Shown: positions 6,541 to 29,448, numbered from the stretch's first letter. The stretch is DNA of 64,000 nt from an uncultured delta proteobacterium (GCA_963706575.1 CAVPNL010000005.1:320001-384000); one strand, 5' to 3'. Notes: generated by a model not told the origin, from the letters alone. Numbers and translations: made by a program.

Positions 6541-8107
6541 ATGGCCACTTCTTCGCCTTGGAAAATCGTCCTGATTGATGACGAAAAAGATATCCGGGAA
6601 GTAATGGCCATTGCCCTTCAGGACGCCGGCTACACGGTTGATATTGCAGCTGACGGTGCCACAGGCCTTAAGCTCTGTGAAGACAGCTCCCCCCAGATCG
6701 TGATCACCGATATTCGTATGCCGGGCATGGACGGCCTCCAGGTGCTGGAAACCATTAAAAAGAAATATCCGGATATTGAAGTTATTGTCGCCACCGCTTT
6801 TGGTGAGATAGACCTTGCTATCCGTGCCCTCCAGCTAGACGCTTCAGACTTTATTACCAAACCGATCAGCGATGAGGCTCTGTATCTTGCTTTGAATCGA
6901 GCCAGGGAGCGATTTAATTCCAGAAAGCAACTCAAGGATTACACGGCCCTTTTGGAAAAGGAAAAAGCAGAAACCAGTCAGGAACTTCTAAAGAGCATTG
7001 CCTTTCAAAGAAATCTGATTGATAGCTCGATGGATGGTATCCTGGGCTGCGATGACAACGATACAGTGGTAACCTACAATCAGAGTATGGAACAGATACT
7101 GGGTTATGCAAAGACAGAAGTTCTTCATAAAATGACCATTAAGCAATTTTTCCCTGCAGGGAAACTGGCGCACTTTAAGGCAGAATTGTCCAGTGATACC
7201 TATGGTGGAGAAAACCGGTTGATTCTTTATGAAACGAGTCTACTGGAGAAATCCGGACATGAAATACCGGTTCAGGTTTCGGCCAACCTGCTGTTTGAGC
7301 AGGGGCGTGCAAAACGGACTGGTCTGCTTTTTCAGGGATCTGCGCAAAATTCGCAAACTCGAACGGGAAGTTTCGGATCAAGCCCGCATCCTTCACCAGG
7401 ACAAAATGATGTCTCTGGGAAGACTGGCCGCCAGCGTCGTCCATGAAATAAACAACCCGTTGTCCGGAATTCTAAATTATCTTCGCCTGATGAGCCGAAT
7501 TTTGGGTAAAGGTTCTTTGTCAGAGAATCATAAAGAAAAATTCCAACGCTACTTGGACTTGGTAGAGAATGAAACCCATCGCTGTTCCCAGATCGTTTCC
7601 GGCCTGCTCAGTTTTTCTCGCATGTCGCCACCGTCTTTTGGACAGGTCCAAATCGATGAACTTCTGCAACGATGTATCCTCTTAAGCCAGCATAAACTGG
7701 AATTGAGTAACATTCGACTCGAATCCAGTGTCCAATCGAATCTGCCGCCGGTTACTGGAGATTTCAATCAGCTTCAGCAGTGTGTGATTAACCTTATTTT
7801 TAATGCCATCGATGCCATGCCAGACGGTGGAACTCTTGAATTAAGTTGTCGCTACGATACAGATCGAGATGTGGTGATTGTCAGGGTAAAAGACTCGGGT
7901 TGCGGGATTCCCAGGGAGGATCTGGCGCACATCTTCGAGCCATTTTACACCACCAAAAAAGAAGGCTATGGGGTGGGACTCGGTCTTTCCACTGTTTACG
8001 GGATTATGGAGCAACACCATGGCAGCGTTAATGTTGAGAGCCGGTCAGGAGCGGGGACTGCAATTATGCTCGAATTGCCCGTTTGCGATTCGAATAAAGG
8101 CGGATGA
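6541..8107 (+). CDS. Hybrid REC-PAS-histidine kinase (frameshift at GGGG 7302-7305)
   Basis: N-terminal receiver (IDDE, TDIRMP, TKP), PAS, H-box VVHEINNPL, and N/G/F boxes in the second frame. Confidence 0.85.
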
Positions 8108-8195
8108 AAAAATTGCTTAATTATTTTGATAACCGATACAAAACCCGCTCGTTAAAAACGGTTATTTCTGAATTTTTAGACAACCATCAATAACA

Positions 8196-9935
8196 ATGGA
8201 AGCTACCATCAAACAATTCGGCGACAGCATCTCCTGCGAACATTGGCTGCAAATTCTGGATGAATTAAATATTGGTGCATTCACGGTCGATGAGAAACGA
8301 CATGTCTCAGCCATGAATTTCAGCGCCCAAGCTTTGATCGGGCAAAAAGACACTGAAGCAATTGGCAAGGACTGTCGGGAAGTATTTGTGGGGGTTCCGT
8401 GTTTTGCGAAATGCCCCTTTAAAACCCCTGAAGACCTGATTACCGATGAGCCCGTCATCCAGATCGAGGATGAAGATCAAACCACCCACTTCGTGACCCG
8501 GATGGCCGCGCCTGTTTTTGGATCCGATCACCAGGTCGTCGGATGTATGACGATCTTGCAGGATCATTCTCCGATTGCCGACCTCATTGACCGAATTCAT
8601 TATGAAGAACGCAGCTTAAAGATAATCCTTGATAACTTAGATGTCGGGATCTTCACTGTCGATAAGGGGGGACGCGTAACATTTTTTAACACAGCGGCTG
8701 AAAAGATCTCGGGTTTTAATCGGCGCAAAATATTGGGCGAATCGTGTTCAATCATTTTTGGAGAGGAAAAAGCCCAGGAAGTTTGTTCAATGCAAGATAC
8801 GATCGTCAATGGCCAACCGCGCAGCAGCCGACAGGGCAAAATAATAACACGTGACGGAGGGTCCATCCCCATTCGAGCCGACTACATGGCGCTTCGAAAT
8901 GAAAAAGGAATTATTGTCGGCGGGTTGACGACCTTTCATGATCTCACCCTGGTGCAGCAACTTAAACAGGCCATGCGGGACCGCTACACCTTCCATGATA
9001 TGATCGGCAAGAGCCCGGCAATGCAGAAAATTTTCGAGATGATCAATGTGGTGGCCACCACGGATGCCACCATTTTGATTGAAGGCGCGACCGGAACCGG
9101 AAAAGACCTGTTGGCGAAAGTGATACATTCCGCCAGTCGAAGATTTGAGCAGCCATTTGTCAAAGTGAACTGTGCCGCAATTCCGGACAACTTGCTCGAA
9201 TCGGAAATGTTTGGTTATGTGAAAGGCGCGTTTACCGGCGCCGAAAGAGACAAAACCGGGCGTTTTCAGGAGGCTGATGGCGGAACCATTTTTCTAGATG
9301 AAATCGGGGATCTGCCGCTTGGCTTGCAAGCCAAACTTCTGCGGGTTCTGGAAGATAAGGAATTCTATCGTTTGGGAAGTCGACACACGGTTAAAGTCAA
9401 CGTTCGTATTATCTCCGCATCGAATCGTAATTTAGAAAACCTCGTTGCAAAACGACTTTTCAGAGAGGATCTTTTTTATCGGTTGAATCTATTTCAAATT
9501 GAACTCCCAGAGCTCAAAGACCGCAAGGTGGACCTTCCTATTCTTATCGGGCATATTTTGAGACGCCTGAGCGCTGCCAGCGGCAGCCGGCTGCCGGAAG
9601 TCTCTGAAAAAGTGATGGAGATTTTGCTCAATTATGACTATCCGGGCAATGTCAGAGAACTCGAAAATATTCTCGAACATGCCCTGATTATCTGTCAGGA
9701 AGAGACCATCCAGACGCGACATCTGCCTGAATATCTGCGGGTCGGCCGCGCCATCCGCAAGCCCTCTGCCAGAAGAAGCATTAGACCGTTACAGGTCTCA
9801 GATGACGAGGAACGCGATAAAATTATTTCTGCGTTGCAACAACACAACGGGCATCGCGCCAAGACGGCCAGGGCTTTAGGCATGGACCGCACTACTCTAT
9901 GGCGTAAGATCAAAAACTATGGAATCAATCCGTGA
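8196..9935 (+). CDS. PAS-PAS sigma-54-dependent transcriptional activator (OrpR-like)
   Basis: Walker A GATGTGKD, GAFTGA, FLDEIG and Fis-type HTH. The first PAS carries C-x8-C-x3-C (8373-8414). Confidence 0.9.
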   Translation: MEATIKQFGDSISCEHWLQILDELNIGAFTVDEKRHVSAMNFSAQALIGQKDTEAIGKDCREVFVGVPCFAKCPFKTPEDLITDEPVIQIEDEDQTTHFVTRMAAPVFGSDHQVVGCMTILQDHSPIADLIDRIHYEERSLKIILDNLDVGIFTVDKGGRVTFFNTAAEKISGFNRRKILGESCSIIFGEEKAQEVCSMQDTIVNGQPRSSRQGKIITRDGGSIPIRADYMALRNEKGIIVGGLTTFHDLTLVQQLKQAMRDRYTFHDMIGKSPAMQKIFEMINVVATTDATILIEGATGTGKDLLAKVIHSASRRFEQPFVKVNCAAIPDNLLESEMFGYVKGAFTGAERDKTGRFQEADGGTIFLDEIGDLPLGLQAKLLRVLEDKEFYRLGSRHTVKVNVRIISASNRNLENLVAKRLFREDLFYRLNLFQIELPELKDRKVDLPILIGHILRRLSAASGSRLPEVSEKVMEILLNYDYPGNVRELENILEHALIICQEETIQTRHLPEYLRVGRAIRKPSARRSIRPLQVSDDEERDKIISALQQHNGHRAKTARALGMDRTTLWRKIKNYGINP

Positions 9936-9953
9936 TCTGAATGTTCTGGGAAC

Positions 9954-10083
9954 GTTGCACAATTGCTTGCAACATTGTTTTGCAACATAATCAAACTCAC
10001 CTCTGCACTCTTTATTCTAACCTATTATAATTTAATCATAATTCTGTAAAATTGGCTTTGAAATGTTGCATTATTCTGCAACA
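9954..10083. promoter_or_regulatory. Candidate enhancer sites for the adjacent sigma-54 activator
   Basis: Palindrome TGTTGCA-N6-TGCAACA at 10064-10083; further GTTGCA/TTGCAACA half-sites at 9954-9987. Confidence 0.6.
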
Positions 10084-10172
10084 GCATGATCTCTTCCGTA
10101 TGCCCAATGGATTCCCTCGATTTATCCCTAACTAATCTGTAATCATATATAAATTTTTAAATACCACCCTTC

Positions 10173-10188
10173 TGGCATATTCTATGCT
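10173..10188 (+). promoter_or_regulatory. Sigma-54 -24/-12 promoter of the Hdr cluster
   Basis: TGGCATATTCTATGCT (GG-N10-GC) upstream of 10213. Confidence 0.75.
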
Positions 10189-10212
10189 CTTTATCCAGAC
10201 AACAGGTGCAAC

Positions 10213-10701
10213 ATGTCGTTAAATTTGTCTGCTATCCCCCCTAACAATGCAGAGGTCTTCTTGGCTCCAGAGTTTCAAAGAAAAAAAATACTCATCGTTG
10301 ATGATGAATTGGATATGCGGATTTTCCTCTGCAATCTGCTGGGCAACTGCGGATATGAGCCCATTGAAGCAAATGATAGGACAGAGGGGATGCAAAAGGC
10401 GGAAAAAGAAAAGCCGGCGTTGATCATTTTGGATGTCATGATGCCCAAGGAAGACGGCATTCTAATGTATCGAGCGCTCAAGGCGCATGAAGAACTGAAG
10501 CATGTGCCGGTGATTATGGTGTCAACCATCGATCAGAAAATGTTTTCATTCTACCATAAATTGCAAATGTCCTCTCGGGATAAAGCCATTTCTGAATCGG
10601 GAGCTTATTTAGAGAAACCGTTGCAAACCGAAAAACTCATCCAACTGGTCCGGAGATTTACCGATGCAGATGAATTCGCGATTACACGAGATGAAAAATA
10701 A
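10213..10701 (+). CDS. Single-domain response regulator
   Basis: IVDDE, ILDVMMP and EKP motifs; start uncertain (possibly TTG 10261). Confidence 0.85.
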   Translation: MSLNLSAIPPNNAEVFLAPEFQRKKILIVDDELDMRIFLCNLLGNCGYEPIEANDRTEGMQKAEKEKPALIILDVMMPKEDGILMYRALKAHEELKHVPVIMVSTIDQKMFSFYHKLQMSSRDKAISESGAYLEKPLQTEKLIQLVRRFTDADEFAITRDEK

Positions 10702-10716
10702 AAGAAGGGGTCTGAA

Positions 10717-13007
10717 TTGATAACAGGTATTGATTCCGAACTTTATCGCGAGCTGGCTAAATTCGGAGCCAAGGATATGGAGATCTGCATGCAGTGCGGT
10801 ACCTGCAGTGCATCGTGTCCCCTGTCTAGCGGGATGCATGCGTTTCCACGTAAGATATATCGTTATCTTCAACTTGGCCTGAGGGACAAGCTGCTCAAAT
10901 CGTCTGTACCCTGGCTGTGCTATTACTGCGGTGACTGCAATACGGACTGTCCGCGGGGGGCCGAGCCGGCCGAGACGATGATGGCCACCCGCCGCTGGCT
11001 GACCGCCCAGTACGACTGGACCGGGCTCGCCAGGCGGTTCTATCTTTCCGAGGCCTGGGAAATCGGTGCGCTAATTACCGTTGCCCTGGGAATCATTGTG
11101 CTCTTCGCACTTTTTCACGGGCCGGTGGTCACCGATCGTGTTGCCGTTAATACCTTCGCACCGGTTATGTGGATTGAGATCGGCGATTTGGCAATGGCCG
11201 CCATCCTGTCAGCTTTCCTGCTGTCAAACGCATTTAGAATGTATCGCTTCATCATGAGCGACATAAAGGTGCCGTTTTGGCTTTATATTACAGAAGCCAG
11301 AGCCTTTGTCCTCAACTTTGTAACCCAGAAACGCTGGCGGAAATGCGGGGAAGACCGCAGTCGTTGGCTGAAGCACTTTATTCTGGTGAGCGGTTATCTG
11401 ACCATGATGTCGCTGGTCATTGTTTTTATCCGCTGGTTCCAGGTCGACGACAGCAGCTGGCATTTCACGAGTATTTTCGGTTATTACGCCACCGGTGTCC
11501 TGCTTGTCATTACGGTGGAGATGTTCCGCAGCCGGCTTAAGAAAGAGGAATCCATCCATCGCTATTCAGCGTTTTCCGACTGGCTTTTTTTGATTCTACT
11601 TTTCTTTACGACGCTAACCGGCATTATGATGCACGCCCTGCGCATTGCCGGGTGGCCGATGGGAACATATGTCATGTATGTCATCCATCTGGCAGTGGCC
11701 GTACCGATGCTGATCATCGAGGTCCCTTTTGGAAAATGGTCCCATCTTTTCTACAGGCCGCTGGCCATATTTTTGGCGAACGTCAGGGAGAAGGCCTCAA
11801 AAGACTCCGGGGTCGAGGTTGAGGATGTCATTGCCGAAGCCAGCGAAATTTTCATGAGCTGCCTACAATGCGGTACCTGCACGAGCGTATGCCCGTGGAA
11901 TGCGGTTATGTCCTACAGCCCGCGCCGGATTCTGCGGCAGCTCACTTTGGAAACCGGAACCGAACAGTCCATTGACCAAGCTGTCTGGAGCTGTGTGACG
12001 TGCAATGCGTGCGGTGTGAACTGTCCGCGCGGTATCGAGATCATCGATGTCATCAAAGCGGTGCGGGGGCTCAATGTCAGCGGCGGAAAAATACCGGCGT
12101 CCTTGGTGGCGCCGCTTGATAGCCTGAAGGCCAGCGGTAACCCCTGGGGCGGTGATCGCACAAAGCGGCTGGAATGGGCCGGAGACCGGAACCTGCCGGT
12201 GTTTACACCTGAGCACGAGTACTGCCTGTTTGCCTGTTGTACAACCGCTTATGACCCCGGCAACCGCAAAGCCGGCCAGGCGATCTTCCAACTGCTGGAA
12301 TATGCGGGCATTGCTTTTGGCACCCTCGGTGCTGAAGAAAGTTGCTGCGGCGATCCGGCTTACAGGCTGGGGGCGAATGAAATTTTCTCGGAGCTTGCCC
12401 TTAAAAATACCGATTTTTTCCTGCAGGCCGGCGTACAGAAGATACTGACCACCTCGCCCCACTGCCTGAACACATTTAAAAATAGCTATGACCGGCTTGA
12501 AAGATTCATGTTGCCAGTGAGCATTACACGGAGGTTCTCGACCGGCTGGTCATGCAGGGCTGCTTAAAACCGACCCTGGAAGTGCCCGCCACGGTCACCT
12601 ATCACGACCCCTGCTATCTGGGGCGTCACCAAGGCATCTACGAAGCGCCCCGCCGGGTTTTGATGAAAATTCCCGGGCTTACACTGGTCGAGATGGCAAG
12701 CACGAAAGAAAACAGTTTGTGCTGCGGGGGCGGCGGCGGCGGAGCCTGGGGCGATTATCCCCGCAATCAGCGCTTGGATGTGCTGCGTGTCAAAGAAGCG
12801 CTCAGCACCGGCGCTGAGGTGATTGCCACAGCCTGTCCCTATTGCCTCCGCATGCTGAACGATGCTGTCAGGGCACTGGGTGTCGGGGATCGAATTGTCG
12901 TCCGGGACCTGGCTGAGTTGCTATTGCAGTCGGTGATGATGAAAGATGAGGCCAAGATGACGGAACACGTTGATTTGGATGTTGATCGGGAGGTCTGCCA
13001 TGTCTGA
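10717..13007 (+). CDS. QmoC-like (2x4Fe-4S plus membrane domain) fused to HdrD-like (2x4Fe-4S plus two CCG domains); frameshift near 12490-12507
   Basis: CMQCGTCSASCP and CYYCGDCNTDCP, a TM region ending KWSHLFYRP, a second dicluster CLQCGTC/CVTCNAC, ESCCGDP...SPHC, then YHDPCYLGR and LCCGGGGG...TACPYC in the next frame. Confidence 0.75.
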
Positions 13008-16000
13008 ACGAATCGGTTTTTATATTTGCCACTGCGGCATCAATATCGCTTATCGGGTTCGGGTGCAGGAAGTCGCTGCGTACGTGGCGGCTTTGCCGAA
13101 TGTGGTCATTTCGCGGGATTACCTGTTCATGTGCTCCGATCCCGGGCAGGAACTTATTGAAAATGATATTCAAGACTACCAACTTACGCGTGTGGTTGTG
13201 GCCTCCTGTTCCCCGCGCATGCACGAAAAAACCTTTCGGGCGGCCTGCCAGCGGGCCGGTCTCAATCCCTATCGGGCGTTTCACATGGTGTGCGTGCGAG
13301 AGCATGTTTCGTGGGTCACCGAGGATGAAGACGAGGCCACCCAAAAGGCCAAGACCCTGGCGGTCGCAGGTATCTTACGGGTTGCCTACCAATATGATCT
13401 AACACCGGCCACGTTTCCGGTATGCACCAACACCCTGATCGTGGGCGGGGGCATCGCCGGCATGCAGGCCGCTCTTGATATTGCCAAGGCCGGGTTTAAA
13501 GCTTACCTGGTGGAAAGACAGCCCACCGTCGGCGGACACATGCTCCAATACGACAAAACCTTTCCTACCCTTGACTGCGCGGCCTGCATCGGTACGCCCA
13601 AGATGGTCTCCGTGGCCCAGGAAGCAAAGATCGAGCTGCTCTCATACAGCGAGGTGGAGGATGTCAGCGGCTTTATCGGCAACTTCAAGGTAAAAGTCCG
13701 CCGCAAATCGCGCTACATAGAGGATAGCTGTACCGGGTGCGGCGAGTGCGAAAAGGTTTGCCCGATCGAGTTTCCCAATGAATGGGACGTGGGCACAAAG
13801 ACCAGAAAGGCGATCTACCGGCCCTTCCCCCAGGCCGTACCCATCACCTACTGTATCGACAAGTACGACCGTGCCCCGTGTGTTCAGACTTGCCCGGCCG
13901 GCACCAATGTACAGGGCTACGTATCGCTGGTTAAATCGGGCAGGTACCGGGAAGCGGTCAATCTCATCATGCAGAAATTACCTCTGCCGGGAACCCTCGG
14001 ACGCATCTGCCCGGCCCCCTGTGAAAAAGAATGTCGCCGCGCCGAGGTGGACTCCGCCATAGCCATCCGTGATCTGAAACGGTTTGCAGCAGACCAGGTG
14101 GACCTTTCCGAGCTACCCCTGCCGGAGATCGAAGACCGGCCGGAGAAGATAGCGGTTATCGGTTCAGGGCCCGCCGGTCTGACTGTCGCATATTATATGC
14201 GATTAAAAGGTTACGCGGTCAGCATTTTCGAGGCGCTGGATCAAGCCGGCGGGATGCTGCGGGTAGGGATTCCAGACTACCGTCTGCCGCCGGAGATACT
14301 GGACAATGAAATCAATTTTATTCTCAAACACGGGATAGAAATCAGAACCGGCGTTCGATTCGGATCGGACCTGTCCCTGGAAGGTCTCCGCCAAGACGGC
14401 TTTGCCGCCATATTTTTGGGAATTGGCGCCCATGACGCCATCCGGATGAACATTCCGGGAGAAGAGCAGGCCGCAGGCGTCATCGATGCCCTCGCTTTTT
14501 TAAGAGAGGTAAACCTGGGCAAAGGAGAGGTTCCCGGCAAGCAGGTCATTGTCATCGGCGGCGGCAATGTGGCCATAGACGCCGCCCGGGTGGCAAAACG
14601 TCTGGGGGCCGAAAAGGTGACGGTGGTTTACCGCCGCTCCGAGCGGGAAATGCCGGCCTATCCTGAAGAATTACACGGCGCCAGGGAGGAAGGTATTGAA
14701 TTTTCATACCTGACTGCTCCGGTAAGTATCCATCGTCAGGGCGGAAAGGTGACCGGGTTTGAATGCATTCGCACCGAACTCGGCCCGCCGGATGCCAGCG
14801 GGCGAAGGCGACCGCTGCCGGTTGAGGGATCTGAATTCGTCATGGCGTGTGATGCGGTCATACCGGCCATCGGTCAGAAAATTGATGTAACCTGGAGCGC
14901 AGGGGAGCCCGATCTCAAACTGACTTCGCGAAACACTTTTACGGTAAATACCACCACTTTGCAAACCAGCCTTCCCGATGTATTTGCCGCCGGTGATGCC
15001 GTGACCGGCCCGGCGACGGTCATCGAAGCCGTGGCGGACGGGCACAAGGCGGTGGCGGCCATGCACCGCTTTATCAGCGGTGAGGATCTGGATCAGTACG
15101 CCGCCGAACGGGTTGCCGAAGAACCTCCGGGAACCAAATGGCAGGCAATTCCCGAAAAGATCAAAAATACTGCCCGGGTGGTATCCGAACATCTGGATCC
15201 CGCCCAACGGGCTAAAAATTTCGATGAGGTTGACCGCAATTTTTCCGAGGCGGCAGCCAGGCAAGAAGCCGCCCGCTGTGTGGATTGCGGAGGATGTTGC
15301 GAATGCAAGCTCTGCGTGGACGCCTGTGAAGCCAAAGCGATCAATCACGAAATGGCGGATAGGGTCGAAGAAATCGAGGTGGGCTCAATCATTGTCGCTA
15401 CCGGCTTCGATCCCCTCGACCCGACCCCGATGCAGCAATACGGATACGGCAGGTACGCCAATGTTTTCACCAATCTGGAGTTCGAGCGGCTTTCCAACGC
15501 CACCGGACCGACGGGCGGCAAGCTCCTTAAGCGGGATCCCAACGACCGCTTGAAATTCAGCGCGGCGCCGAAAAGCGTGGCGATCCTTCATTGCATCGGC
15601 AGCCGCGATATCAACTACCACGAGTATTGCTCGCGCACCTGCTGTATGTATGCGCTCAAGTATGCCCATCTTCTCAAAGACAAGTGTGGACACGACACGC
15701 AAGTTTACAATTTCTACATCGACATGCGTTGCTTTGGCAAAGGGTATGAGGAGTTTTACAAGCGCGTCCAGAGCGAGGGTGTGCGCATGGTTCGCGGCAA
15801 GGCTGCGCGGGTGGAAGAAAACGACGGTATCCTGACGGTAACCGCCGAAGATACACTTTCGGACCGAATTGTGAAAGTTCCGGTAGAGATGGTGATCCTG
15901 TGCACCGCCATGGAGGCCCGTTCGGACGCCAACACCGTGTCGCGTATCTTTGGGATCAGCCTTGGAAGTGACGGTTTCTTTCAAGAGGAACACCCTAAAC

Positions 16001-16380: not shown

Positions 16381-16394
16381 AAAGGAGTTATCAG

Positions 16395-16817
16395 ATGAGC
16401 GAATTTGAACCGACAATTGTAGCCTTTTTTTGCAACTGGTGCACCTATACGGCGGCGGATTTAGCGGGTACGTCGCGCCTGTCATATCCTCCCAATGTAA
16501 AAAGCATTCGGGTGATGTGCACCGGTATGGTGGATCCCCAATATGTGATCAAAGCCTTTCTGGAGGGGGCTGACGGGGTGTTGATCAGCGGGTGCCATCC
16601 GGGTGATTGCCATTATATCAACGGGAATTATAAAGCCCGCCGGCGGATAAAGCTGCTCAAGGAGATTCTGCCGAAATTCGGTTTTGATCAACAACGGTTG
16701 CGCTTAACCTGGATCGGTGCCAGTGACGGCATCCAGCTTGCCGAGGTCATGCGTGATTTGGTTGCTCAAATCAAGGCTTTGGGACCCAGCCAGGCCAAGT
16801 TGAAGATGGTGATTTGA
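16395..16817 (+). CDS. mvhD: MvhD-type [2Fe-2S] subunit
   Basis: FFCNWCTY.AAD.AG, RVMCTG, GADGV..GCHPGDCHY; ATG after AGGAG. Confidence 0.92.
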   Translation: MSEFEPTIVAFFCNWCTYTAADLAGTSRLSYPPNVKSIRVMCTGMVDPQYVIKAFLEGADGVLISGCHPGDCHYINGNYKARRRIKLLKEILPKFGFDQQRLRLTWIGASDGIQLAEVMRDLVAQIKALGPSQAKLKMVI

Positions 16818-16830
16818 GCCACGGGTTTTT

Positions 16831-16967: not shown

Positions 16968-16984
16968 AGGTAAAGGAGATAACA

Positions 16985-18127: not shown

Positions 18128-18170
18128 GGGGTCATTGCGCGAAACGAACCAACGAAAAGGTGAGGGTTAT

Positions 18171-21100
18171 ATGACCAAAAAAATTGGTAAAGCCCTGGTT
18201 GTCGGAGCCGGCATCAGCGGTATCCGCTCGGCATTGGACCTGGCTGAATATGGTTACGGCGTTACCCTGATAGACCGGTCCTGCCATATCGGCGGCATTT
18301 TGAGTCAACTCGACTATCAGTTTCCCACAGACAGGTGCGGTATGTGCAAAATGCTTCCTTTAGTCGATCGAGATGCAAGCTCGCAATATTGCCTTCGCAA
18401 GGGGCTTTTTCATGAAAATATCGACATTCTGCTTGGCACCGAGCTGGTTTCAATCGACGGTGAGCCCGGCCGTTTCCAGGTCCAGCTGAAGGAGCATCCC
18501 AATTGGGTCAATTCCGATCTGTGCACCGGTTGTGGAGAGTGTACCCAGGTTTGCCCCGTGGAGGTCCCCGACGAATTCAATGCCGGGCTGGCAAAGCGCA
18601 AAGCAATATACCTTCCGGTCCCCCATGCCATTCCCAACACCTATATTATTGATGTTACTTCCTGTAACGACTGCAGGGCCTGTATCGAGGCTTGCCCAAC
18701 AGATGCCATTCACCTGCCCGAGCAGAAACGCGAGGGATTTCGCATTCTTGTGGTCGATGATGAACTCATCGTGCGCGATTCCCTCAAGGAATGGTTGCAA
18801 GAGGAAGGCTTTGCGGTGGACATGGCCGCCTCCGGTTCGGAAGCTTTAGATCAACTGACAAAACAGGAATATCAATTAATGCTGCTGGATATCAAGATGC
18901 CGGGCATGGACGGTGTCGAGGTCCTGCAAAAGGCCAGAGAAAGCTTCGCGGATATCAATGTGATTATGATGACCGCTTATGCAACCGTTGAAACCGCTGT
19001 TGAAGCCATGAAAATAGGGGCTCTGGATTATCTGATAAAACCATTTGATCCCGAAACCCTGATCCCCATGGTCCTGAGAATATACCAGGATATGACGGCG
19101 GCTGAAGGCCGACAGTTAGAAGTTGGGGCCATCGTACTTAGCGGTGGCACGGCCTTTTTCGACCCGGCCGGCGGGAAAAACACGTTTGGCTACGGGATGT
19201 ATCCGAACGTTGTCACCAGCCTTGAGTTTGAACGCATATTAAGTGGTACCGGCCCCTTTGAGGGACGGCCGCTGCGGCCGCTGGACGGAAAACCGGTTCA
19301 TAAAGTCGCCTGGATTCAATGCGTAGGCTCGCGCGATTTGCAAACGGATGCAGACTTTTGTTCAAATATCTGTTGCATGGTGGCCATTAAAGAAGCTGTC
19401 CTGGCCAAAGAAAAAATCGACGCGGATTTGGAAACAACCCTTTTTTATATGGATATGCGTACGTTTGGCAAAAGCTTTCAACGCTACCGGGAGCAGGCTG
19501 AAAGCCTTCATGGTGTGCGATTCGAAAGGGGTCGGGTCCACTCTGTCATACAGGATGAAGAAAGCGGAGATATGATTATCCGCAGTGTGGCCATTTCCGG
19601 AAAATCCACTGAATCACATTTTGACATGGTGGTGCTCACCGTCGGCCAGCGTCCGGCCGGTGGCACCTCTGAATTGGGCGAAATGCTGGGGCTGGAGCTG
19701 AATCCATGGGGCTTTGGAAACACTATCCCTTTTTCCCTGACGCGAACCAACCGCAGCGGGATTTTGCTGGGCGGTTCATTCGCGGGTCTCAAAGACATCG
19801 GTGACTCGGTGACCCAGGCCTCGGCGGCTGCCTTATCGGCATCCCAGGTGATTCATTCCAGTGGGGGTAGCCTATCGTTGGAGTCGCCGCCAGCCCTGCC
19901 CATAGCTGCTCTGGCGCGTGAAATCCCCAGAATTATGGCGGTCGTCTGTACCTGCGGGGGCAAACTTTCAGGATTTAATGACCCGGCAGAAATTGTTCAA
20001 CACCTTAAAACCAACCCTGTGGTGAAACAGGTTGAATTTCTGGAACACATCTGCACGGCCGACGGCTGGGCACAGCTGGCGGAAATGGTGGAAACGAACA
20101 AACCGAACCGGCTTTTGATTGGCACTTGCATGCCCTATGTCTATCAACGCAAACTCCAGGAGTTCGGCCGGCAGGTGGGTATAGATCCTGCCCTGATGGA
20201 AGTGGTTGATGTAAATACGGAATTAAAGGACAAACGGCTACTTTTGCGCAATATGCTTTCTGCTTTAGAGATGGGGATTTCCAAGCTCAAATGGGTGGAC
20301 CCATCTTCAACCGTTACAATTCCAGTCGCTCAACGTGCTTTGGTCATCGGTGGCGGTATTGCCGGCATGACGGCTGCTCTGGCAATTGCCGATCATGGAT
20401 TTCAGGTGGATCTTGTGGAACAGGCAGAACAGTTGGGAGGAAATCTGAACTGGCTGCAGCGCACCCTGGAGGGGTATTCGATAGAGACATTGCTGGGGGA
20501 CACCCGTCTCCTGGTTGAAAGGCATCCCAAGATTGGCGTTCATATCCAGTCCCAGGTTATTAGTTCTGTTGGCCAGGTAGGGAGTTTTTTGACTACCTTG
20601 GAAGGCCCGCAAAATTCGGTCCAAGCCTTGGAGCATGGTGTGACTATTTTAGCCACCGGCGGGGCGGAAGCCGTAACCGTTTCTTATGGATATGGTACAA
20701 ATCCGTCGATTATCACCCAGAAAGAATTAGAGCAAAAGCTATCTGCCGGCAAGATCGAACCCGAGCAGCTCGATTCGGTAGTGATGATTCAATGTGTGGA
20801 CTCGCGCGAGGAACCGCGCAATTATTGCAGTCGGGTGTGTTGTGCCAATTCGCTCAAGCAAGCCCTGGATCTCAAGGAAAAAAACCCTGAACTTTCAGTA
20901 TACATTCTTTATCGGGACATGATGGCCTACGGATTTGCCGAGGCTTATTACACCCGGGCCCGCAAAGCCGGTGTGATCTTCATCCAGTATCAGATTGATG
21001 AAAAACCCCGGGTCCAATGCGACCCGGCAAGCCTGGAGGTGGCCGTTTTTGAGCCCATCCTCGGTCGGCCGCTTCAAATTCAGACGGATCTTGTGGTTTT

Positions 21101-21575
21101 AGCCACCGGCGTTGTTCCAAATCTTCCTCAGGGCTTGGTGGAAATTTTTGGCGTAACACTTGATCAGGACGGCTTTTTCCAGGAGGCCGAATCCAAGTGG
21201 CGCCCGGTTGACGCCCTGAAAGAGGGCGTTTTTGCCTGCGGTCTGGCCCACTCCCCTCGAAACATACCGGAAGCAATTACCACTGCCGAGGCCGCCGCCG
21301 CAAGAGCCTTGAGAATACTTGCCCGTGAGCGCTTGCGGTCGGGAAAAGTAGTGGCCACTGTCCGTCACAGTCTGTGCAGTCTGTGTGAACAATGCATTGA
21401 TGCATGTCCATACGGTGCTCGCGTGCTGGATCTTGATCATGAAAAGGTACTGGTAAATCCGGCAATGTGCCAGGGGTGTGGGTCCTGTGCGGCAGTCTGC
21501 CCCAACAGCGCATCCGTTTTGGAGGGTTTTCAGGAACAGCAAATGTTTGAGGTAATTGATGCCGCCATTGGATGA
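18171..21575 (+). CDS. hdrA: Tandem (two-FAD-domain) HdrA with an embedded response-regulator receiver domain
   Basis: GAGISG, ferredoxin, REC (~18738-19088), LEFER, QCVGSRD..FCSNICCM; second half GGGIAG, QCVDSR..YCSRVCC, CGLAHSP and ferredoxin. The reading frame is uninterrupted. Confidence 0.9.
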   Translation: MTKKIGKALVVGAGISGIRSALDLAEYGYGVTLIDRSCHIGGILSQLDYQFPTDRCGMCKMLPLVDRDASSQYCLRKGLFHENIDILLGTELVSIDGEPGRFQVQLKEHPNWVNSDLCTGCGECTQVCPVEVPDEFNAGLAKRKAIYLPVPHAIPNTYIIDVTSCNDCRACIEACPTDAIHLPEQKREGFRILVVDDELIVRDSLKEWLQEEGFAVDMAASGSEALDQLTKQEYQLMLLDIKMPGMDGVEVLQKARESFADINVIMMTAYATVETAVEAMKIGALDYLIKPFDPETLIPMVLRIYQDMTAAEGRQLEVGAIVLSGGTAFFDPAGGKNTFGYGMYPNVVTSLEFERILSGTGPFEGRPLRPLDGKPVHKVAWIQCVGSRDLQTDADFCSNICCMVAIKEAVLAKEKIDADLETTLFYMDMRTFGKSFQRYREQAESLHGVRFERGRVHSVIQDEESGDMIIRSVAISGKSTESHFDMVVLTVGQRPAGGTSELGEMLGLELNPWGFGNTIPFSLTRTNRSGILLGGSFAGLKDIGDSVTQASAAALSASQVIHSSGGSLSLESPPALPIAALAREIPRIMAVVCTCGGKLSGFNDPAEIVQHLKTNPVVKQVEFLEHICTADGWAQLAEMVETNKPNRLLIGTCMPYVYQRKLQEFGRQVGIDPALMEVVDVNTELKDKRLLLRNMLSALEMGISKLKWVDPSSTVTIPVAQRALVIGGGIAGMTAALAIADHGFQVDLVEQAEQLGGNLNWLQRTLEGYSIETLLGDTRLLVERHPKIGVHIQSQVISSVGQVGSFLTTLEGPQNSVQALEHGVTILATGGAEAVTVSYGYGTNPSIITQKELEQKLSAGKIEPEQLDSVVMIQCVDSREEPRNYCSRVCCANSLKQALDLKEKNPELSVYILYRDMMAYGFAEAYYTRARKAGVIFIQYQIDEKPRVQCDPASLEVAVFEPILGRPLQIQTDLVVLATGVVPNLPQGLVEIFGVTLDQDGFFQEAESKWRPVDALKEGVFACGLAHSPRNIPEAITTAEAAAARALRILARERLRSGKVVATVRHSLCSLCEQCIDACPYGARVLDLDHEKVLVNPAMCQGCGSCAAVCPNSASVLEGFQEQQMFEVIDAAIG

Positions 21576-21596
21576 ACGGCTTAAAAAAAATTAAAA

Positions 21597-23900
21597 ATGT
21601 TCAAGTTTATCAAAAATATCCGGCGTCGGTTGGCGACCAAGCTCATTTTAACAGTCGGCCTGACCCTGCTCATTACGATTTCTACCTGGGCTTACTTTAA
21701 TATCAATTATCAGGAAAAAAAGCTCATGGAGAATATTGTAGAAGGAACCGATCGGTTAACCAATACCATCAAACTCGGCACGCACTATGCCATGATGCTA
21801 AACTCGCGGGATGATATCAACCAGATCATTAATAATATCGGTAGGCAGAAAGAGATCGAAACCATTCGTATTTATAATAAGGGCGGGAAAATCAAATATT
21901 CCAACCAGCCGACGGAAATTGATACCGCCACCAATATAAAAGATGAAGCTTGTTATATCTGTCACCGGACGGAACCACCGCTGTTTGAACTCAGCCTGGA
22001 AGAAAGAACACGTATCTTTACCTCTGCCAAAGGCTATCGTTTACTTGGAATTATTAGCCCTATTTGTAATGAGCCTGGGTGTGCGACCGATGCCTGTCAT
22101 ATACATCCGAAAGGCAAAAAAATTCTTGGAGCGCTAGATGTGGTGGTCTCTCTGGAAGATGCGGATAAAGAAATCTTCATGACCCAAAAAGAAGCGTTTG
22201 GTTTGGCGGGTGCTATTTTCCTGGTGACATCCACCATTATTTTTCTTTTCCAGTTGCGGTTTGTCAATCAACCGATCCGGAAATTAATCGATGGAACCCG
22301 TACCATCGCAGAGGGGATTCATCCCAGCAGAGTCGACATTGACCAGGACGATGAGATGGGAAAACTTGCGGTTGCCATCAATCAGATGAGTAAAAAAATT
22401 GCCGAAAAACAGGCCGAACTGAATGAACAAAGAGACGAATACCAGACCCTCTTTGAAAGGGCACCCTGCCTGATTACGGTTCAGGATCGAAATTATAAGT
22501 TGCTAAGATATAATCGCGAATTCGCAAAACAGTTTGATCCTCAGCCCGGCGAACATTGCTATCATTCATATAAAGGGCAAGATCAGAAATGTGAAAATTG
22601 CCCGGTTGAACACACATTTGAAGATGGTCAAACCCATTATGGTGAGGAGACCGGGCTTAACAAAGACGGTACCCCGGTTCATTGGATTCTGCGAGCATCT
22701 CCGATTAAAAATGCGAAGGGTGAAATTGTTGCCGCCATCGAGATGAGCCTAGACATTACACAGCGCAAACAGCTTGAGGACAAACTGGAAAAGTCTGAGA
22801 AGAAATATCACGAAATTTTCAACAATATGCCAAACCCCGTTTTTGTATTGGACCTGGCGTCATTGAAGATACTCGACTGCAATGAGAGTGTAAAACCAGT
22901 ATACGGATTTGATAAAGATGAAGTCATTAACAGATCCTTTTTGGATCTCTTCATCGGAAAAGACCGTGATGAATATGCGTCAAAGCTAAAAAACGTTTCC
23001 GTGATCAACCAGGCAAAACAGCAGAACAAAAATGGCAAGACACTTTTTGTGACCATCAGAATTTCGCCTTCGGATTATTCGGGCAATAAGGTGCTTCTCG
23101 TGAGCACCAGCGATATCACCAAACGGCTCGAAACCGAGCAGCAGTTAATCCAGGCCAGCAAGATGGCAACCTTGGGAGAGATGGCCACCGGAGTTGCCCA
23201 CGAGCTCAATCAGCCGCTTTCGGTGATAAAAACCGCCAGCAGTTTTTCCATAAAAAAAATAAATAAAAACGAGCCGATCGAAGCGGAAATCTTGTTCAAA
23301 ATTCTGGCAAAGATAGACAGTAATGTGGATCGAGCGACAAAAATAATTAACCATATGCGGCAATTTGCGCGTAAATCTGAGATGGATTTGGAGAAAGTCC
23401 AGATCAACGACATTCTCGAAAGGGCTTTTGAGATTTTCAGCCAACAGCTTAAGTTAAGAGGGATTGAAGTCATCTGGTCCATCGACAAGAAATTACCGAA
23501 GATCAATGCGGATCCCGGTCGCATGGAGCAGGTGTTTATCAACCTTTTATTGAATGCCAGAGACGCAATTGAGGATAGATGGGGTAATCAAGAGCCGCAA
23601 TCAAGTGAAAAAAAGATTATTCTAAAAACAGTCTGTGATGGGCACAACGTCATCTGCGAGGTCTGTGATACCGGCATAGGGATTTCGGAATCTATTTCAG
23701 ATAAAATATTTGAACCTTTTTTCACGACGAAGGAAGTCGGCATGGGCACGGGGCTGGGGTTATCCATCAGTTATGGGATCGTGAAAGATTGCGGTGGTAG
23801 TATACAGGTCGTTCCCAACAAGCCAGAGGGCGCCTGTTTTGTTTTAAAATTTCCGCTGCAGGATATAAACGATGCAAAAGAAATTACTACTCGTCGATGA
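21597..23900 (+). CDS. Membrane sensor histidine kinase (periplasmic heme-c motifs, HAMP, 2 PAS)
   Basis: Two TMs flank CYICH (21951-21965) and CATDACH (22080-22100); HAMP; PAS with C-x10-C-x2-CP; VAHELNQPL and HATPase boxes. Confidence 0.9.
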   Translation: MFKFIKNIRRRLATKLILTVGLTLLITISTWAYFNINYQEKKLMENIVEGTDRLTNTIKLGTHYAMMLNSRDDINQIINNIGRQKEIETIRIYNKGGKIKYSNQPTEIDTATNIKDEACYICHRTEPPLFELSLEERTRIFTSAKGYRLLGIISPICNEPGCATDACHIHPKGKKILGALDVVVSLEDADKEIFMTQKEAFGLAGAIFLVTSTIIFLFQLRFVNQPIRKLIDGTRTIAEGIHPSRVDIDQDDEMGKLAVAINQMSKKIAEKQAELNEQRDEYQTLFERAPCLITVQDRNYKLLRYNREFAKQFDPQPGEHCYHSYKGQDQKCENCPVEHTFEDGQTHYGEETGLNKDGTPVHWILRASPIKNAKGEIVAAIEMSLDITQRKQLEDKLEKSEKKYHEIFNNMPNPVFVLDLASLKILDCNESVKPVYGFDKDEVINRSFLDLFIGKDRDEYASKLKNVSVINQAKQQNKNGKTLFVTIRISPSDYSGNKVLLVSTSDITKRLETEQQLIQASKMATLGEMATGVAHELNQPLSVIKTASSFSIKKINKNEPIEAEILFKILAKIDSNVDRATKIINHMRQFARKSEMDLEKVQINDILERAFEIFSQQLKLRGIEVIWSIDKKLPKINADPGRMEQVFINLLLNARDAIEDRWGNQEPQSSEKKIILKTVCDGHNVICEVCDTGIGISESISDKIFEPFFTTKEVGMGTGLGLSISYGIVKDCGGSIQVVPNKPEGACFVLKFPLQDINDAKEITTRR

Positions 23901-24993
23901 TGAAAAGGATGTCCGCGAGGTTCTGCTCTTACCCTTGTCGGATTTCGGATACCATATTTTCGAAGCCGAAAATGGAGAGGAAGCTTTGCGCCTTTTTAAG
24001 GAAGTCCAGCCGCCGATCGTTATGACTGATATTAAAATGCCGGGCATTGATGGTATCGAGCTGCTGCGAAAGATAAAACATGAAAATCCGGAGACCGAAG
24101 TCATTATGATCACCGGGCATGGGGATATGGATCTGGCAATTAAAAGTCTTAAATATGAAGCCACAGATTTTATCACGAAACCAATTAACGTCGATGCTCT
24201 GGAAATCGCACTCCAAAGGGCTATGGATCGAATTATTACCCGACAAAAACTACGCGAGTATACCGAAAACCTCGAGCAGCTTATACGCGAGAAAACCGAG
24301 TTGCAGAGCCATTTATCTTCGCTAGGTTTGATGATTGGATCCATATCTCATGGAATAAAAGGCCTGTTGACCGGATTAGATGGCGGTATGTATCTGCTGA
24401 ACTCAGGTTTTTCGAAAAAAAACAAAGACCAGACTGAAGAGGGGTGGGAAATCGTAAAGTCGATGGTCGAACGAATCCGCAAGATGATTATGGATATCCT
24501 TTTTTATGCCAAGGAAAGAGATCTCAAATTGGAGCGCATCGATATCCGAAATTTTGTCGAAGAGGTGGTCAAAGAACTTGAACCAAAAATGAAAAGTCAA
24601 AACATTAAATTCATAAAGAATTTCGATACTGATCTAGGAGAGCTCGAAGTTGACGCAACCTATGTCCATTCTGCCCTGATTAATATCATTGAAAATGCAA
24701 TAGAAGCCTGCAGCCAAGACCAAACAAAAAACTCGCCTGAAATTGTTTTCAGCGTCAAAGCGCACAAAAAAAGCGTCATCTTTGAAATTGCTGATAATGG
24801 CATTGGTATGAATCGTGAAACTCAGGAAAGAATTTTTACACCATTTTTTTCGTCCAAAGGGAGCAAAGGAACCGGACTAGGGCTTTTTGTCTCCAACACC
24901 ATCATCCAGCAGCATGGTGGTGTAATCAATGTGAAATCCACCTCCGGTCAAGGTGCTGTTTTTCAGGTAAAAATTCCGAAACAGGAGGGATAA
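23872..24993 (+). CDS. Hybrid REC-histidine kinase
   Basis: VDDE/TDIKMP/TKP receiver, H-box SISHGIKG, NAIEA, DNGIG, FTPFFSSKG, GTGLGL. Confidence 0.9.
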   Translation: MQKKLLLVDDEKDVREVLLLPLSDFGYHIFEAENGEEALRLFKEVQPPIVMTDIKMPGIDGIELLRKIKHENPETEVIMITGHGDMDLAIKSLKYEATDFITKPINVDALEIALQRAMDRIITRQKLREYTENLEQLIREKTELQSHLSSLGLMIGSISHGIKGLLTGLDGGMYLLNSGFSKKNKDQTEEGWEIVKSMVERIRKMIMDILFYAKERDLKLERIDIRNFVEEVVKELEPKMKSQNIKFIKNFDTDLGELEVDATYVHSALINIIENAIEACSQDQTKNSPEIVFSVKAHKKSVIFEIADNGIGMNRETQERIFTPFFSSKGSKGTGLGLFVSNTIIQQHGGVINVKSTSGQGAVFQVKIPKQEG

Positions 24994-26124
24994 TGAGAAC
25001 TTTCGACGATTTAATTAAAGAAGTGCAAAACCCCGGACTTTGTCATCGTTGTGGTGCTTGTGTCGCCTTTTGTGCAGCCATTAACTACGGGGCTTTAGAG
25101 TTAGATTCAGAAGGGCAACCAAGATATGCGGATAAAGATAGATGTATCAAGGGTGGGCTGTGCTATGTAATCTGCCCGGCGATCGATGAGTTAAAAGAAG
25201 AAACAAAAAGAAAGGTGGATTGGGCCGCGCCCATGGGGCGGGTATCCGATATCCGTATTGCGCGTGCGAAAGACCCGGCTATCCGCAACGCAGCTACGGA
25301 TGGGGGCGTTGTCACCGCGTTACTGGTTTATTTATTTCAAAAGCGTCAGATAGATGCCGCTGTCGTGACAAAGCCTGTCGGGCCATTCAAGCGTGAATCG
25401 TTTTTAGCCGCAACTGAGGAGGATATTCGCAGTTCAGCCGGATCTTTCTTTGATATCTCATATGGCATGAAAAGCTTAAGCGACCATTACTCGACTTATT
25501 CCCAGATAGGCGCATTTCATTCTAATATCAAAAATGGATTTCAACGTGTTGCCTTCGTCGGGACTCCCTGCCAGATACAGGCCATTCGCAAAATGCAAGC
25601 GATCAATATCTTCCCGTCGGATGCCGTCAAGTTATGTTTGGGACTGTTATGTTCGGGAAACTTCATTTTTGGAGAAAAACAACGGCGCCAGGTTGCCCAA
25701 ATTGGCAATTTTCAATGGGAGCGTGTCAAGAAAATTAATATCAAAGAAAAGCTGATGGTGCATTTAAAAGGCGGTGAAGTGAAAACAATTAAGCTAAACG
25801 ATCTTAACTTCATGAAGCGGTTTCCTTGTAATTTCTGTGATGACTTTTCGGCCGAGTATGCCGACATTTCATTTGGCGGGCTGGGTGCAGATGAAGGGTG
25901 GACCACCGTTATTATACGCTCCCCGATAGGAAGGAAATATTTTTCATGGGCTAAGTCCAAAGCAATTGAAGAAAACGAGGAGGGTCGCCATCTGCATCAT
26001 ACCTAGTAAGGCACTCAACAGGGTCAGACATTGGTCGCAGAAGAAGAAAACATTGGCCCTTGAAAGTCGAAAAACGCTGAGTAGTAAATTTCCAGACCTA
26101 AAGCTGGAAGATTGTTCTTTATAA
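24993..26124 (+). CDS. FrhB/FdhB-family (F420 hydrogenase/dehydrogenase beta-like) protein; probable frameshift near 25985
   Basis: CHRCGACVAFC, TDGGVVTALL, FVGTPCQ, GLLCS, CNFCDDFSAEYADISFG. The ORF stops at 26006, but an adjacent frame continues KALNRVRHWSQKKK... to TAA 26124, just before the next RBS. Confidence 0.75.
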
Positions 26125-26131
26125 AGGGAGA

Positions 26132-26410
26132 ATGAAAATGGCGAAGATGCAAAAATACATGGTGGTTCACAGCGATACCACTATTCCGTGGGAAAAAGTT
26201 GAAGAAAATTGGGCAAAACTCACCAATGTCGGAAATGCAATATGGGTGCGAACCTATTTTAATAAAGAAAAAGGCGTGCGATATTGCTTGTGGATAGCTC
26301 CAGACGAAACCGTGTTGAAAACAATCTTTTCTAATCTGGATATTTCCTGGGAGTCTCTGATAGAGGTCGAAAAAACAGATCCAGATCTCTGGGATCAGAA
26401 GAAAGGGTAG
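26132..26410 (+). CDS. Small DUF4242-like protein, paralog 1
   Basis: YMVVH...WVRTYFN..KG.RYCLW.APDE pattern; clearly homologous to 26690-27004. Confidence 0.6.
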   Translation: MKMAKMQKYMVVHSDTTIPWEKVEENWAKLTNVGNAIWVRTYFNKEKGVRYCLWIAPDETVLKTIFSNLDISWESLIEVEKTDPDLWDQKKG

Positions 26411-26689
26411 GAACATTTAGAAGCAGAAGGGTCTGACAACTGTAAAGTCACGTTTTGTTCAGGACACTTTAACTTAATATTTAGGCAGAGATTCAATGAA
26501 GAAACCTCTCAAAATGTGCATATCTTGCTCCTGACAGGAGATAAATCGTTCAGTCTGGAGCCTCTATGCACGTTCAGTATTCGTTGGCCTTACTTTCCTA
26601 TTTCCTCTTGTCAGGAGACACTTTGGTTGTTTCAGGCACGGTGAGATATTGAGATTATTTATTAACATCTCACTTGAGGAGGATCTGTC

Positions 26690-27004
26690 ATGGAAAAAAT
26701 GTTAACATACATGATCGTCCACAATGATCCCAACATTTCATGGGAAAAGGTGGAGGAAAACTGGGGAAAACTCGCAAATGTCGAAACGTGTACATGGGTG
26801 CGGACTTGTTTTAATAAAGATAAGGGGCTGCGCTATTGTGTATGGTTGGCTCCCGATGAGCGTACATTAAAATCGATTTTTACTGATCTTAATATCTCTT
26901 ATGAATCGATAATAGAAGTTGAAGAAACGGTTCCAGATCTGTGGGGCAAGAGATGGGAAGAGCACCTCGCTGCAGAAGAAACGGCTAGCACACGGGGATT
27001 TTAA
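26690..27004 (+). CDS. Small DUF4242-like protein, paralog 2
   Basis: Same pattern as 26132; strong GAGGAGG RBS. Confidence 0.65.
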   Translation: MEKMLTYMIVHNDPNISWEKVEENWGKLANVETCTWVRTCFNKDKGLRYCVWLAPDERTLKSIFTDLNISYESIIEVEETVPDLWGKRWEEHLAAEETASTRGF

Positions 27005-27056
27005 TAAAAATTCCCTAATTTGAATGTTAATTTACATCCTATGTGGTGAGTACTGA

Positions 27057-27090
27057 AGGCAGGGTCAGCAATGGCCCTGCCTATTTTATC
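27057..27090 (+). terminator. Intrinsic terminator ending the Hdr cluster
   Basis: AGGCAGGGTCA-GCAA-TGGCCCTGCCT followed by ATTTT. Confidence 0.75.
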
Positions 27091-27611: not shown

Positions 27612-27644
27612 AAGGCGGGCTATTTTTTATTGTCAGACATATAA

Positions 27645-29446: not shown

Positions 29447-29448
29447 GA

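Follow-up and report, generated by a model that had tools for sequence, protein, structure and literature searches.

A receiver domain within HdrA and its predicted cognate kinase in a variant HdrABC/HdrL redox cluster of an uncultured delta proteobacterium

The closest described relative of the locus examined here is the HdrABC/HdrL cluster of Syntrophobacter fumaroxidans (Sfum_0819-0824), which, according to excerpts of the original report, comprises hdrB, hdrC, hdrA, an FdhB-like gene, mvhD and hdrL, lacks a catalytic hydrogenase, and was detected as a whole set with sulfate (PMC5947623). The names HdrL and HdrF come from PMC2702500, as quoted in the portions consulted. Passages of PMC12054007 define type II and type III HdrA for methane-metabolising archaea, propose that clusters with type II HdrA, FdhB, MvhD and HdrD bifurcate twice, and assign ferredoxin reduction in type I HdrA to its inserted ferredoxin. 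We have analyzed a 64,000-nucleotide stretch from an uncultured delta proteobacterium (GCA_963706575.1 CAVPNL010000005.1:320001-384000, hereafter the window), in which positions 6541-27090 hold a redox cluster whose core is of this known, uncharacterised Sfum_0819-0824 type, and whose HdrA carries a receiver domain. Fusions of HdrA to a receiver have already been annotated, since Sfum_0821 bears the automatic label 'Response regulator receiver modulated' in the parts of the PMC5947623 supplement consulted; the terms 'receiver' and 'response regulator' have 0 matches in the main text of that paper. New here are the kinase wiring of this receiver, a regulatory cassette shared with another redox operon but carrying an Hdr-specific branch, and the replacement of hdrCB by a QmoC-HdrD fusion in step with the HdrL scaffold. 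A literature search, with two possibly relevant reviews outside its scope, returned no description of a receiver in HdrA, of such wiring or of the QmoC-HdrD variant, and no report of phospho-control of an Hdr-type enzyme. Likewise, PMC4641369 (0 matches) and the passages of PMC11887813 covered, supplements aside, contain nothing on an HdrA receiver or the fusion variant.

The type II (double) HdrA of the window (18168-21575, + strand; family scans and model) contains its receiver at 18738-19085, where it follows the inserted-ferredoxin domain and precedes the latter half of the first thioredoxin-reductase domain. This insert has all the residues expected of a receiver, namely the acidic pair (D197 and D198, numbered from 18168), the phospho-acceptor D241, T269 at the Thr/Ser position, the aromatic switch Y288, and K291. 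The fusion forms a large family: all 120 homologues listed carry the receiver, and D241, T269, Y288 and K291 are kept in 120/120 (the phospho-Asp also in 61/61). Its column identity of 0.83, compared with 0.61-0.86 for the catalytic domains, indicates that it is conserved as much as the catalytic parts of the enzyme. An AlphaFold model (predicted local distance difference test, pLDDT, 85) places a normal receiver fold within the HdrA pseudo-dimer, and in a structure search this model matches only plain HdrA folds. Complex predictions for the ferredoxin-receiver arm with the FdhB-like protein gave 0.38, 0.00 and 0.02, and were used neither way. On its sequence, HdrA is of the electron-bifurcating type: equivalents of E356 and K409 both occur in 61/61 first modules, in 55/61 and 60/61 second modules, respectively, and also in the HdrL consensus.

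Receivers 66-67% identical to that of HdrA also occur in USP-REC-USP fusions beside HK1-type kinases (see below) at two other loci (L017:10766-12097, - strand; L232:15723-17045). Elsewhere in the window, positions 31608-35977 (- strand) encode a kinase, a permease of the sodium:sulfate symporter family joined to a receiver, and a stand-alone receiver, such that the permease represents a second receiver-bearing effector that is not a DNA-binding protein.

The cluster marker, the FdhB-like protein, was found in 202 of 401 sampled genomes of the order at E 1e-60, and 175 of the 201 marker genomes other than the window's own reach a stronger threshold (E 1e-100). For neighborhood comparison, 60 loci were chosen out of 150 matches listed (214 in all), favoring long contigs and many families, and counts were taken from 20-kb windows, making those for flanking genes lower bounds. 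The hdrL-mvhD-fdhB core is present in 59/60 loci and hdrA::REC lies directly downstream of it in 56/60, showing that the synteny, which a preliminary description of the window had proposed to check, is conserved. Within 20 kb, the regulators discussed below recur to different extents (haem kinase 41, DivK-like receiver 38, REC-HK 33, HK1 29, sigma-54 activator 18). A survey of the phylum with a junction query, in which 7 candidates were scored per genome, gave a lower bound of 7/301 genomes.

According to family scans, the cluster encodes three histidine kinases and four receivers, and no DNA-binding domain is attached to any of them, exactly as first described. By their DHp and receiver specificity positions these seven modules sort into three classes. 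Class I comprises the HdrA receiver and the DHp helix of the REC-PAS-histidine kinase (HK1; 6541-8107, +; Pfam). Class II comprises the DHp helix of the haem kinase (HK2; 21597-23900, +) together with the N-terminal receivers of HK1 and of the REC-histidine kinase (HK3 or REC-HK; 23872-24993, +; Pfam), and class III comprises the REC-HK DHp helix and a single-domain DivK/DVU0259-like receiver (10213-10701, +).

The class I pairing is carried by several lines of evidence. When free receivers were retrieved by the HdrA stretch alone, without reference to any kinase, 63 loci were obtained; a kinase ends just upstream in 59 of these, and 58 of the 59 adjacent kinases are closer to HK1 than to the haem kinase or REC-HK. 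A DHp profile of eight specificity positions, derived from 48 distinct kinases, ranks HK1 first (15.4 bits) among 47 kinases of the genome, with the next at 1.9 bits, the haem kinase at -11.1 bits (rank 10/47) and REC-HK at -14.6. The same profile separates the orthologues without overlap, with 31/31 HK1 proteins scoring 13-18 and all 58 haem kinases and 37 REC-HK proteins negative. Thus, the kinase-receiver scoring proposed in the preliminary description picks out a kinase inside the cluster as the match for the HdrA receiver. Furthermore, only two kinases and two receivers of class I occur in the genome, and because the members of the other pair are adjacent on another contig (C4), HK1 is left with the HdrA receiver. 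HK1 orthologues occur in 156/175 genomes with the strong cluster marker versus 35/225 without it.

For class II, the receivers of HK1 and REC-HK are 50% identical and keep their Asp in 30/30 and 56/56 cases, and 4/5 kinases with the haem-kinase DHp type stand directly before a class II receiver (4 examined). REC-HK-type kinases adjoin DivK-like receivers at C15:290, at C15:250 and at the tmc locus described below. A pattern search for DivK-like proteins found none, and so the class III pairing rests on specificity positions and gene maps. We conclude that HK1, and not the haem kinase, is probably the cognate kinase of the HdrA receiver. A scheme in which the haem kinase would phosphorylate both hybrid receivers, HK1 the HdrA receiver and REC-HK the DivK-like protein would account for all seven modules.

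Several observations weigh against this assignment. Two genomes (G671 and G432) carry hdrA::REC far from hdrL-mvhD-fdhB, HK1 has no match in 19/175 marker-positive genomes, and 35 HK1-positive genomes lack the strong marker. The 47 kinases were found by pattern and are probably not all that the genome encodes, while the receivers and kinases behind the profile are phylogenetically clustered, and the genomes are not independent. In addition, an NtrC-type activator on contig C4 has a class I-like receiver (50% identical) to which HK1 could cross-talk, and since this activator's own kinase scores only 1.9 bits, the DHp profile is imperfect. A further genome (G610, 84% complete) yielded neither hdrA::REC nor HK1. 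With these points taken into account, we place the probability that HK1 directly controls the Hdr enzyme at roughly 60%. The other class I pair on C4 lies divergent from genes for a 1416-aa HdrL-HdrA fusion and MvhD (L084:3511-11896), and this locus is a possible source of the HdrA receiver.

The pairing might be right and its consequence different. Information could run from the enzyme to the kinase, with the redox state of HdrA altering how readily its receiver takes up or loses phosphate, so that HdrA would serve HK1 as a phosphate sink that reports redox state; or the phosphorylation of HdrA could control only assembly or turnover. This idea draws on the attachment of the receiver to the iron-sulfur (Fe-S) arm, on the lack of a demonstrated receiver-flavin contact, and on the USP fusions described above, which mark this receiver class as a portable module. 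However, a sink would require a second, output-bearing class I receiver, and the sole further receiver of this class in the genome stands beside a kinase of its own. The T and Y switch residues that serve allosteric output are, moreover, invariant (120/120). We therefore consider a sink or an assembly role unlikely, but deserving of more weight than the alternatives that follow.

Much of the signaling equipment is not particular to this cluster. Directly upstream of the window (C5:303-318 kb, L081:3479-18052), a paralogous cassette stands in front of tmcDCBA, whose products pass NCBIfam cut-offs. Its proteins are 63% (haem kinase), 47% (REC-HK), 55% (activator) and 47% (DivK-like receiver) identical to those of the window, and the locus likewise has a sigma-54 promoter, a USP gene and DivK-like receivers, with a multihaem cytochrome gene coming first. 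No class I kinase or receiver is present in the tmc cassette, which argues that HK1 and the HdrA receiver form an Hdr-specific addition to it. Regulator clusters near tmc and hmc have been published before, as passages of PMC5109826 relate. Consequently, what had been described as the cluster's own multi-step phosphorelay is better viewed otherwise on both counts: most of the cassette is shared, and, as no cluster protein gave an HPt family match in our scan, the arrangement is a multikinase cascade rather than a strict His-Asp-His-Asp phosphorelay. Redox genes and regulators are also intermingled on two further contigs of this genome. Contig C15 (L082:3521-12574) combines a class III REC-kinase, a DivK-like receiver, a dicluster protein, an HdrB-like protein and a double HdrA, and an hdrL/hdrD/hdrA cluster on contig C3 (L086:3723-13512) has a GAF kinase and a single receiver between its redox genes.

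The sigma-54 activator of the cluster (8196-9935, +; Pfam) has two PAS domains and no receiver, and carries the motif C60-x8-C69-x3-C73 with E62, its Cys triad being kept throughout (22-23/22-23). In OrpR, the corresponding residues C52, C61, C65 and D/E54 hold a redox-sensing Fe-S cluster (PMC8359166, in part). By motif, the window protein may work like OrpR and bind an Fe-S cluster, but we do not file it as OrpR; the OrpR operator was not found upstream of the operon, where a different repeat is enriched. The lack of a receiver and the OrpR-type triad together suggest that transcription probably needs no phosphorylation. A predicted -24/-12 box (10173-10188, +; pattern search) corresponds to the sigma-54 promoter of the preliminary description, and such boxes occur in 32/39 upstream regions (from the window, the tmc paralogue and 37 relatives) versus 2.2% of shuffles. 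TGTTGY/RCAACA half-sites are enriched nine-fold in these regions (4.05 per region versus 0.45 in shuffles), and two putative enhancer sites with TGTTGC/GCAACA half-sites at variable spacing lie at 9955-10090. Since a palindrome of fixed spacing matches only 4/39 regions, we do not claim a single operator consensus. The tmc locus has the same promoter elements.

These shared parts form the basis of a second alternative, in which the main output is transcriptional, either through action of the DivK-like receiver on the sigma-54 activator or through cross-phosphorylation of the C4 NtrC-type activator by HK1, with the HdrA receiver secondary. The haem kinase, REC-HK, activator, DivK-like receiver and promoter elements precede tmcDCBA with no HdrA receiver, and so the cascade there must act through something else. 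Nevertheless, the phospho-Asp of the DivK-like receiver, which scores 89 bits on its best NCBIfam match (NF045717, DVU0259/DivK; cut-off 160), is kept in 31/43 orthologues and replaced in 12/43, whereas that of HdrA is never replaced. The activator comes with a sensor motif of its own, of the OrpR type, and HK1 and the HdrA receiver are the very parts added only at the hdr locus. A mainly transcriptional output thus appears rather improbable to us. The earlier proposal that the relay output is post-translational and falls on the redox complex itself is favored by the invariant HdrA phospho-Asp, the match of HK1 to this receiver and the activator lacking a receiver, but it does not extend with equal force to the DivK-like branch, which could be transcriptional.

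The haem kinase is a membrane sensor with a periplasmic domain, HAMP and two PAS domains (Pfam). CxxCH, Cx4CH, M66 and H170 of its periplasmic domain are all invariant (55/55), suggesting a sensor with two haem c sites and with M66 and H170 as candidate distal ligands. This domain has no sequence relative in the PDB, its single-sequence fold (pLDDT 39) was discarded, and the leads from an Atlas search were confined to Mcp40H-20-like ones, present in 15-24% of cluster members. Orthologues that lack the periplasmic haem domain but keep the kinase core also exist (L191:4339-5844; L195:14292-15782). Its gene follows hdrA::REC after a gap of 21 bp and lies near the cluster in 41/60 loci, which invites the suggestion that the haem kinase donates phosphate directly to HdrA. 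We reject this as very improbable: against the class I profile its DHp helix has a score of -11; counted from the His, its first 13 residues are the same as in the tmc paralogue, whose locus is devoid of an HdrA receiver; and class II kinases are found in front of class II receivers. That the receiver is a tolerated, non-functional insertion among generic redox-operon kinases would fit the similar cassettes beside several redox operons of this genome (L081, L082 and L083) but is scarcely credible given the invariant active-site residues, the recognition helix conserved across 68 loci, and the co-occurrence of HK1 with the cluster.

The electron outlet of the cluster varies between loci. As the preliminary description had noted, open reading frame (ORF) listing and family scans reveal no hdrB or hdrC and no catalytic hydrogenase or formate dehydrogenase subunit inside the cluster; the lack of hdrBC, however, marks a swappable variant and is not a rule. 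In the window, hdrL with an NAD(P)-binding insert, mvhD, the FdhB-like gene and hdrA stand together with hdrB and hdrC replaced by a QmoC-HdrD fusion, and on gene content we file the locus as a variant, not a strict member, of the HdrABC/HdrL cluster. The fusion (10717-13007, +; family scans and relatives) consists of a dicluster, a membrane domain, a second dicluster and two CCG domains. H220, H249, H281, H306, H324 and H343 of the membrane region, as well as the CCG cysteines, are kept in 17/17 fusions, and the resulting arrangement is that of QmoABC, where a dicluster is followed by a membrane domain of the haem b type with conserved His residues; haem binding is predicted for it. The fusion scores 221 bits on the QmoC equivalog NF038018 (cut-off 300) and is therefore not canonical Qmo; a separate QmoC-like match lies on contig C6.

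Among 72 loci (the 60, the window and 11 further ones, a few probably near-duplicates), 17 have the fusion (F-type), 51 have hdrCB (CB-type), 4 have neither and none has both. The fusion occurs in 44/401 genomes, and both types are found within the window's genus. HdrL (13000-16380, +; family scans and trees) is a type III HdrA with a GltD/NfnB-like insert of NADP type (GxGxxA) in its inserted-ferredoxin domain. In fusion loci its three scaffold parts share 77-94% identity with those of the window, in hdrCB loci no more than 73%, leaving no overlap between the two ranges, and no other part of the cluster separates the two types. On FastTree trees, each of which omitted rows below coverage or identity thresholds, the type label changes once for the HdrL scaffold (66 rows) and 10 times for HdrA::REC (67 rows), with at least 9 of the 10 forced by well-supported branches; the further trees give 5 changes for FdhB+MvhD, 3 for the GltD insert and 12 for the haem kinase. 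Fixed differences between types number 27/599 columns in HdrL and 0/1117 in HdrA::REC. This co-segregation suggests that the fusion probably docks on HdrL, and it is most simply explained if the fusion was exchanged several times together with its matched HdrL. An HdrC-like acceptor would likewise dock on HdrL, though hdrCB adjoin hdrA::REC. Against this, part of the co-segregation could reflect physical linkage, but the GltD insert, which lies within hdrL, follows the fusion less tightly (3 changes, 41-91% identity).

Taken together, these observations are consistent with a sigma-54 operon for an HdrL-MvhD-FdhB-HdrA::REC complex under two layers of control. In the transcription layer, the OrpR-like Fe-S/PAS activator would sense cytoplasmic redox directly. 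In the activity layer, as read from specificity residues, the periplasmic dihaem kinase would phosphorylate the N-terminal receivers of both hybrid kinases, whereupon HK1 would phosphorylate D241 in HdrA and HK3 the DivK-like protein. Because the receiver directly follows the inserted-ferredoxin domain, which corresponds to the ferredoxin-reducing arm of methanogen HdrA, phosphorylation would most likely gate low-potential electron exchange or assembly. NADP(H) would react at the GltD insert of HdrL, and the high-potential branch would exit via HdrL to soluble HdrCB in most genomes and to the QmoC-HdrD fusion here. The fusion has potential access to menaquinone and to a thiol/disulfide, for example DsrC; which way electrons run and which thiol and quinone take part are matters of speculation. 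In its fullest form, this model describes a phospho-gated NADPH/ferredoxin/menaquinone/DsrC junction, in which a periplasmic dihaem sensor feeds a branched two-tier kinase cascade that would turn the ferredoxin arm on or off within seconds through the HdrA receiver, and in which one outlet cartridge (HdrCB in soluble form) can be exchanged for another (membrane QmoC-HdrD with matched HdrL), as would have happened repeatedly among Desulfobacterales. As a whole we offer it only tentatively, as somewhat more likely to fail in one of its parts than to hold in all.

The remaining genes complete the picture. Every gene of the preliminary description was recovered by ORF listing and family scans, on the + strand and in the order given there, with distances of -29 to 167 bp from the DivK-like receiver gene (10213) through the REC-kinase gene. 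MvhD is encoded at 16395-16817 (+; Pfam PF02662) and the FdhB/ElpB-like iron-sulfur protein at 16985-18127 (+; Pfam); solved FdhB chains have an N-terminal Gly-rich stretch that the latter does not conserve, making it possibly flavin-free. In 9/60 genome loci, fdhB and hdrA::REC are separated by an optional insert of 1.4 kb that encodes a split dicluster/CCG (TmcB/HdrD-like) pair (for example L008:8318-9646 and L094:5665-6981). An FrhB-like flavoprotein gene (24993-26125, +) and two genes for SCO4226-like small paralogues, 64% identical to each other (26132-27004, +), precede a terminator-like hairpin (27057-27082, +; hairpin search), much as first described. Pfam and neighborhood comparison identify these genes; the FrhB-like gene recurs in 0/60 loci and a small paralogue in 1/60, and we reject them as core members and regard them as lying outside the conserved unit. 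The FrhB-like protein on contig C15 (L082) is 64% identical to that of the window.

Three genes are frameshifted in this assembly, namely those for the REC-PAS-HK (near 7308), the QmoC-HdrD fusion (about 12495-12508) and the FrhB-like protein (near 26002). One base is absent at 7308 and at 26002 in contigs of related populations, and these two look like assembly errors; the HK1 orthologue is a single ORF in locus L186. Two bases near 12500 are absent in intact relatives, whose QmoC-HdrD protein has about 762 aa. This site is not among the indels shown by the related-population contigs, and by comparison with relatives only, it is probably an assembly error too. A pseudogene reading was rejected, as the indels are absent from relatives. 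A gene at 2020-3310, which we take to be kynureninase-like, is split into two ORFs, probably by a further assembly frameshift. Matches to RNA runs cover small shares of the stretch (≤0.15), come from contigs only, and have no bearing on expression or operon length. Downstream, 27354-31496 encodes zinc-ribbon and NifU-like proteins (Pfam) in a region resembling orp-type neighbors, and the ORFs after the NifU-like gene are presumably selD and yedF. Possible trans partners lie 20-30 kb away at 47715-60388, where, judging from translations, we assume genes for an Ech-type membrane hydrogenase (+) and a sulfhydrogenase (-).

If true, the predicted signaling from HK1 to HdrA would represent direct signaling control of an energy-metabolism enzyme, with a kinase, a residue and a docking partner named for an HdrABC/HdrL-type cluster in sulfate reducers. 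The cluster marker is found in about half of the sampled genomes of the order, and excerpts of PMC5947623 tie the Syntrophobacter fumaroxidans homologue to sulfate respiration. A swappable outlet further points to relatives that empty one and the same complex into different acceptors, a soluble disulfide in some and the quinone pool in others.

Comparison with known systems shows how these parts recombine. Published Tmc/Hmc regulator clusters (PMC5109826, in part; L081) resemble the window in that a membrane redox operon is accompanied by a USP and by several kinases and receivers, with paralogues 47-63% identical, but the tmc locus has neither a class I kinase nor an enzyme-borne receiver, and the window has both. 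The activator resembles OrpR of Desulfovibrio vulgaris in being a PAS sigma-54 activator with C-x8-C-x3-C and, two positions beyond the first Cys, an acidic residue; it differs in its two PAS domains, its operator (TGTTGC/GCAACA half-sites) and its target operons (PMC8359166, in part). Archaeal type II/III HdrA proteins (PMC12054007, in part; solved HdrA structures 5ODC, 8RVU and 7BKB) share the double thioredoxin-reductase HdrA, the GltD-inserted HdrA and K409/E356. The portions of that source give no receiver (0 matches to 'response regulator'), unlike the window HdrA, and the GltD insert has GxGxxG in archaeal HdrA rather than GxGxxA. Locus VIII of Desulfobacterium autotrophicum HRM2 likewise has tandem hdrL/hdrA with mvhD and fdhB, but retains hdrCB (PMC2702500, in part). 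HdrF of that strain, like the window fusion, joins membrane helices to HdrC and HdrB domains; its genes adjoin glpAB or etfAB, whereas the window fusion adjoins hdrL and has an extra N-terminal QmoC-type dicluster. The passages of PMC2702500 give these proteins no signaling role, in contrast to the enzyme-borne receiver here. Finally, the Syntrophobacter fumaroxidans HdrABC/HdrL cluster shares hdrL, mvhD, the FdhB-like Fe-S gene, HdrA and the lack of a catalytic hydrogenase (PMC5947623, in part), and where it has hdrB and hdrC, the window instead has a membrane QmoC-HdrD fusion.

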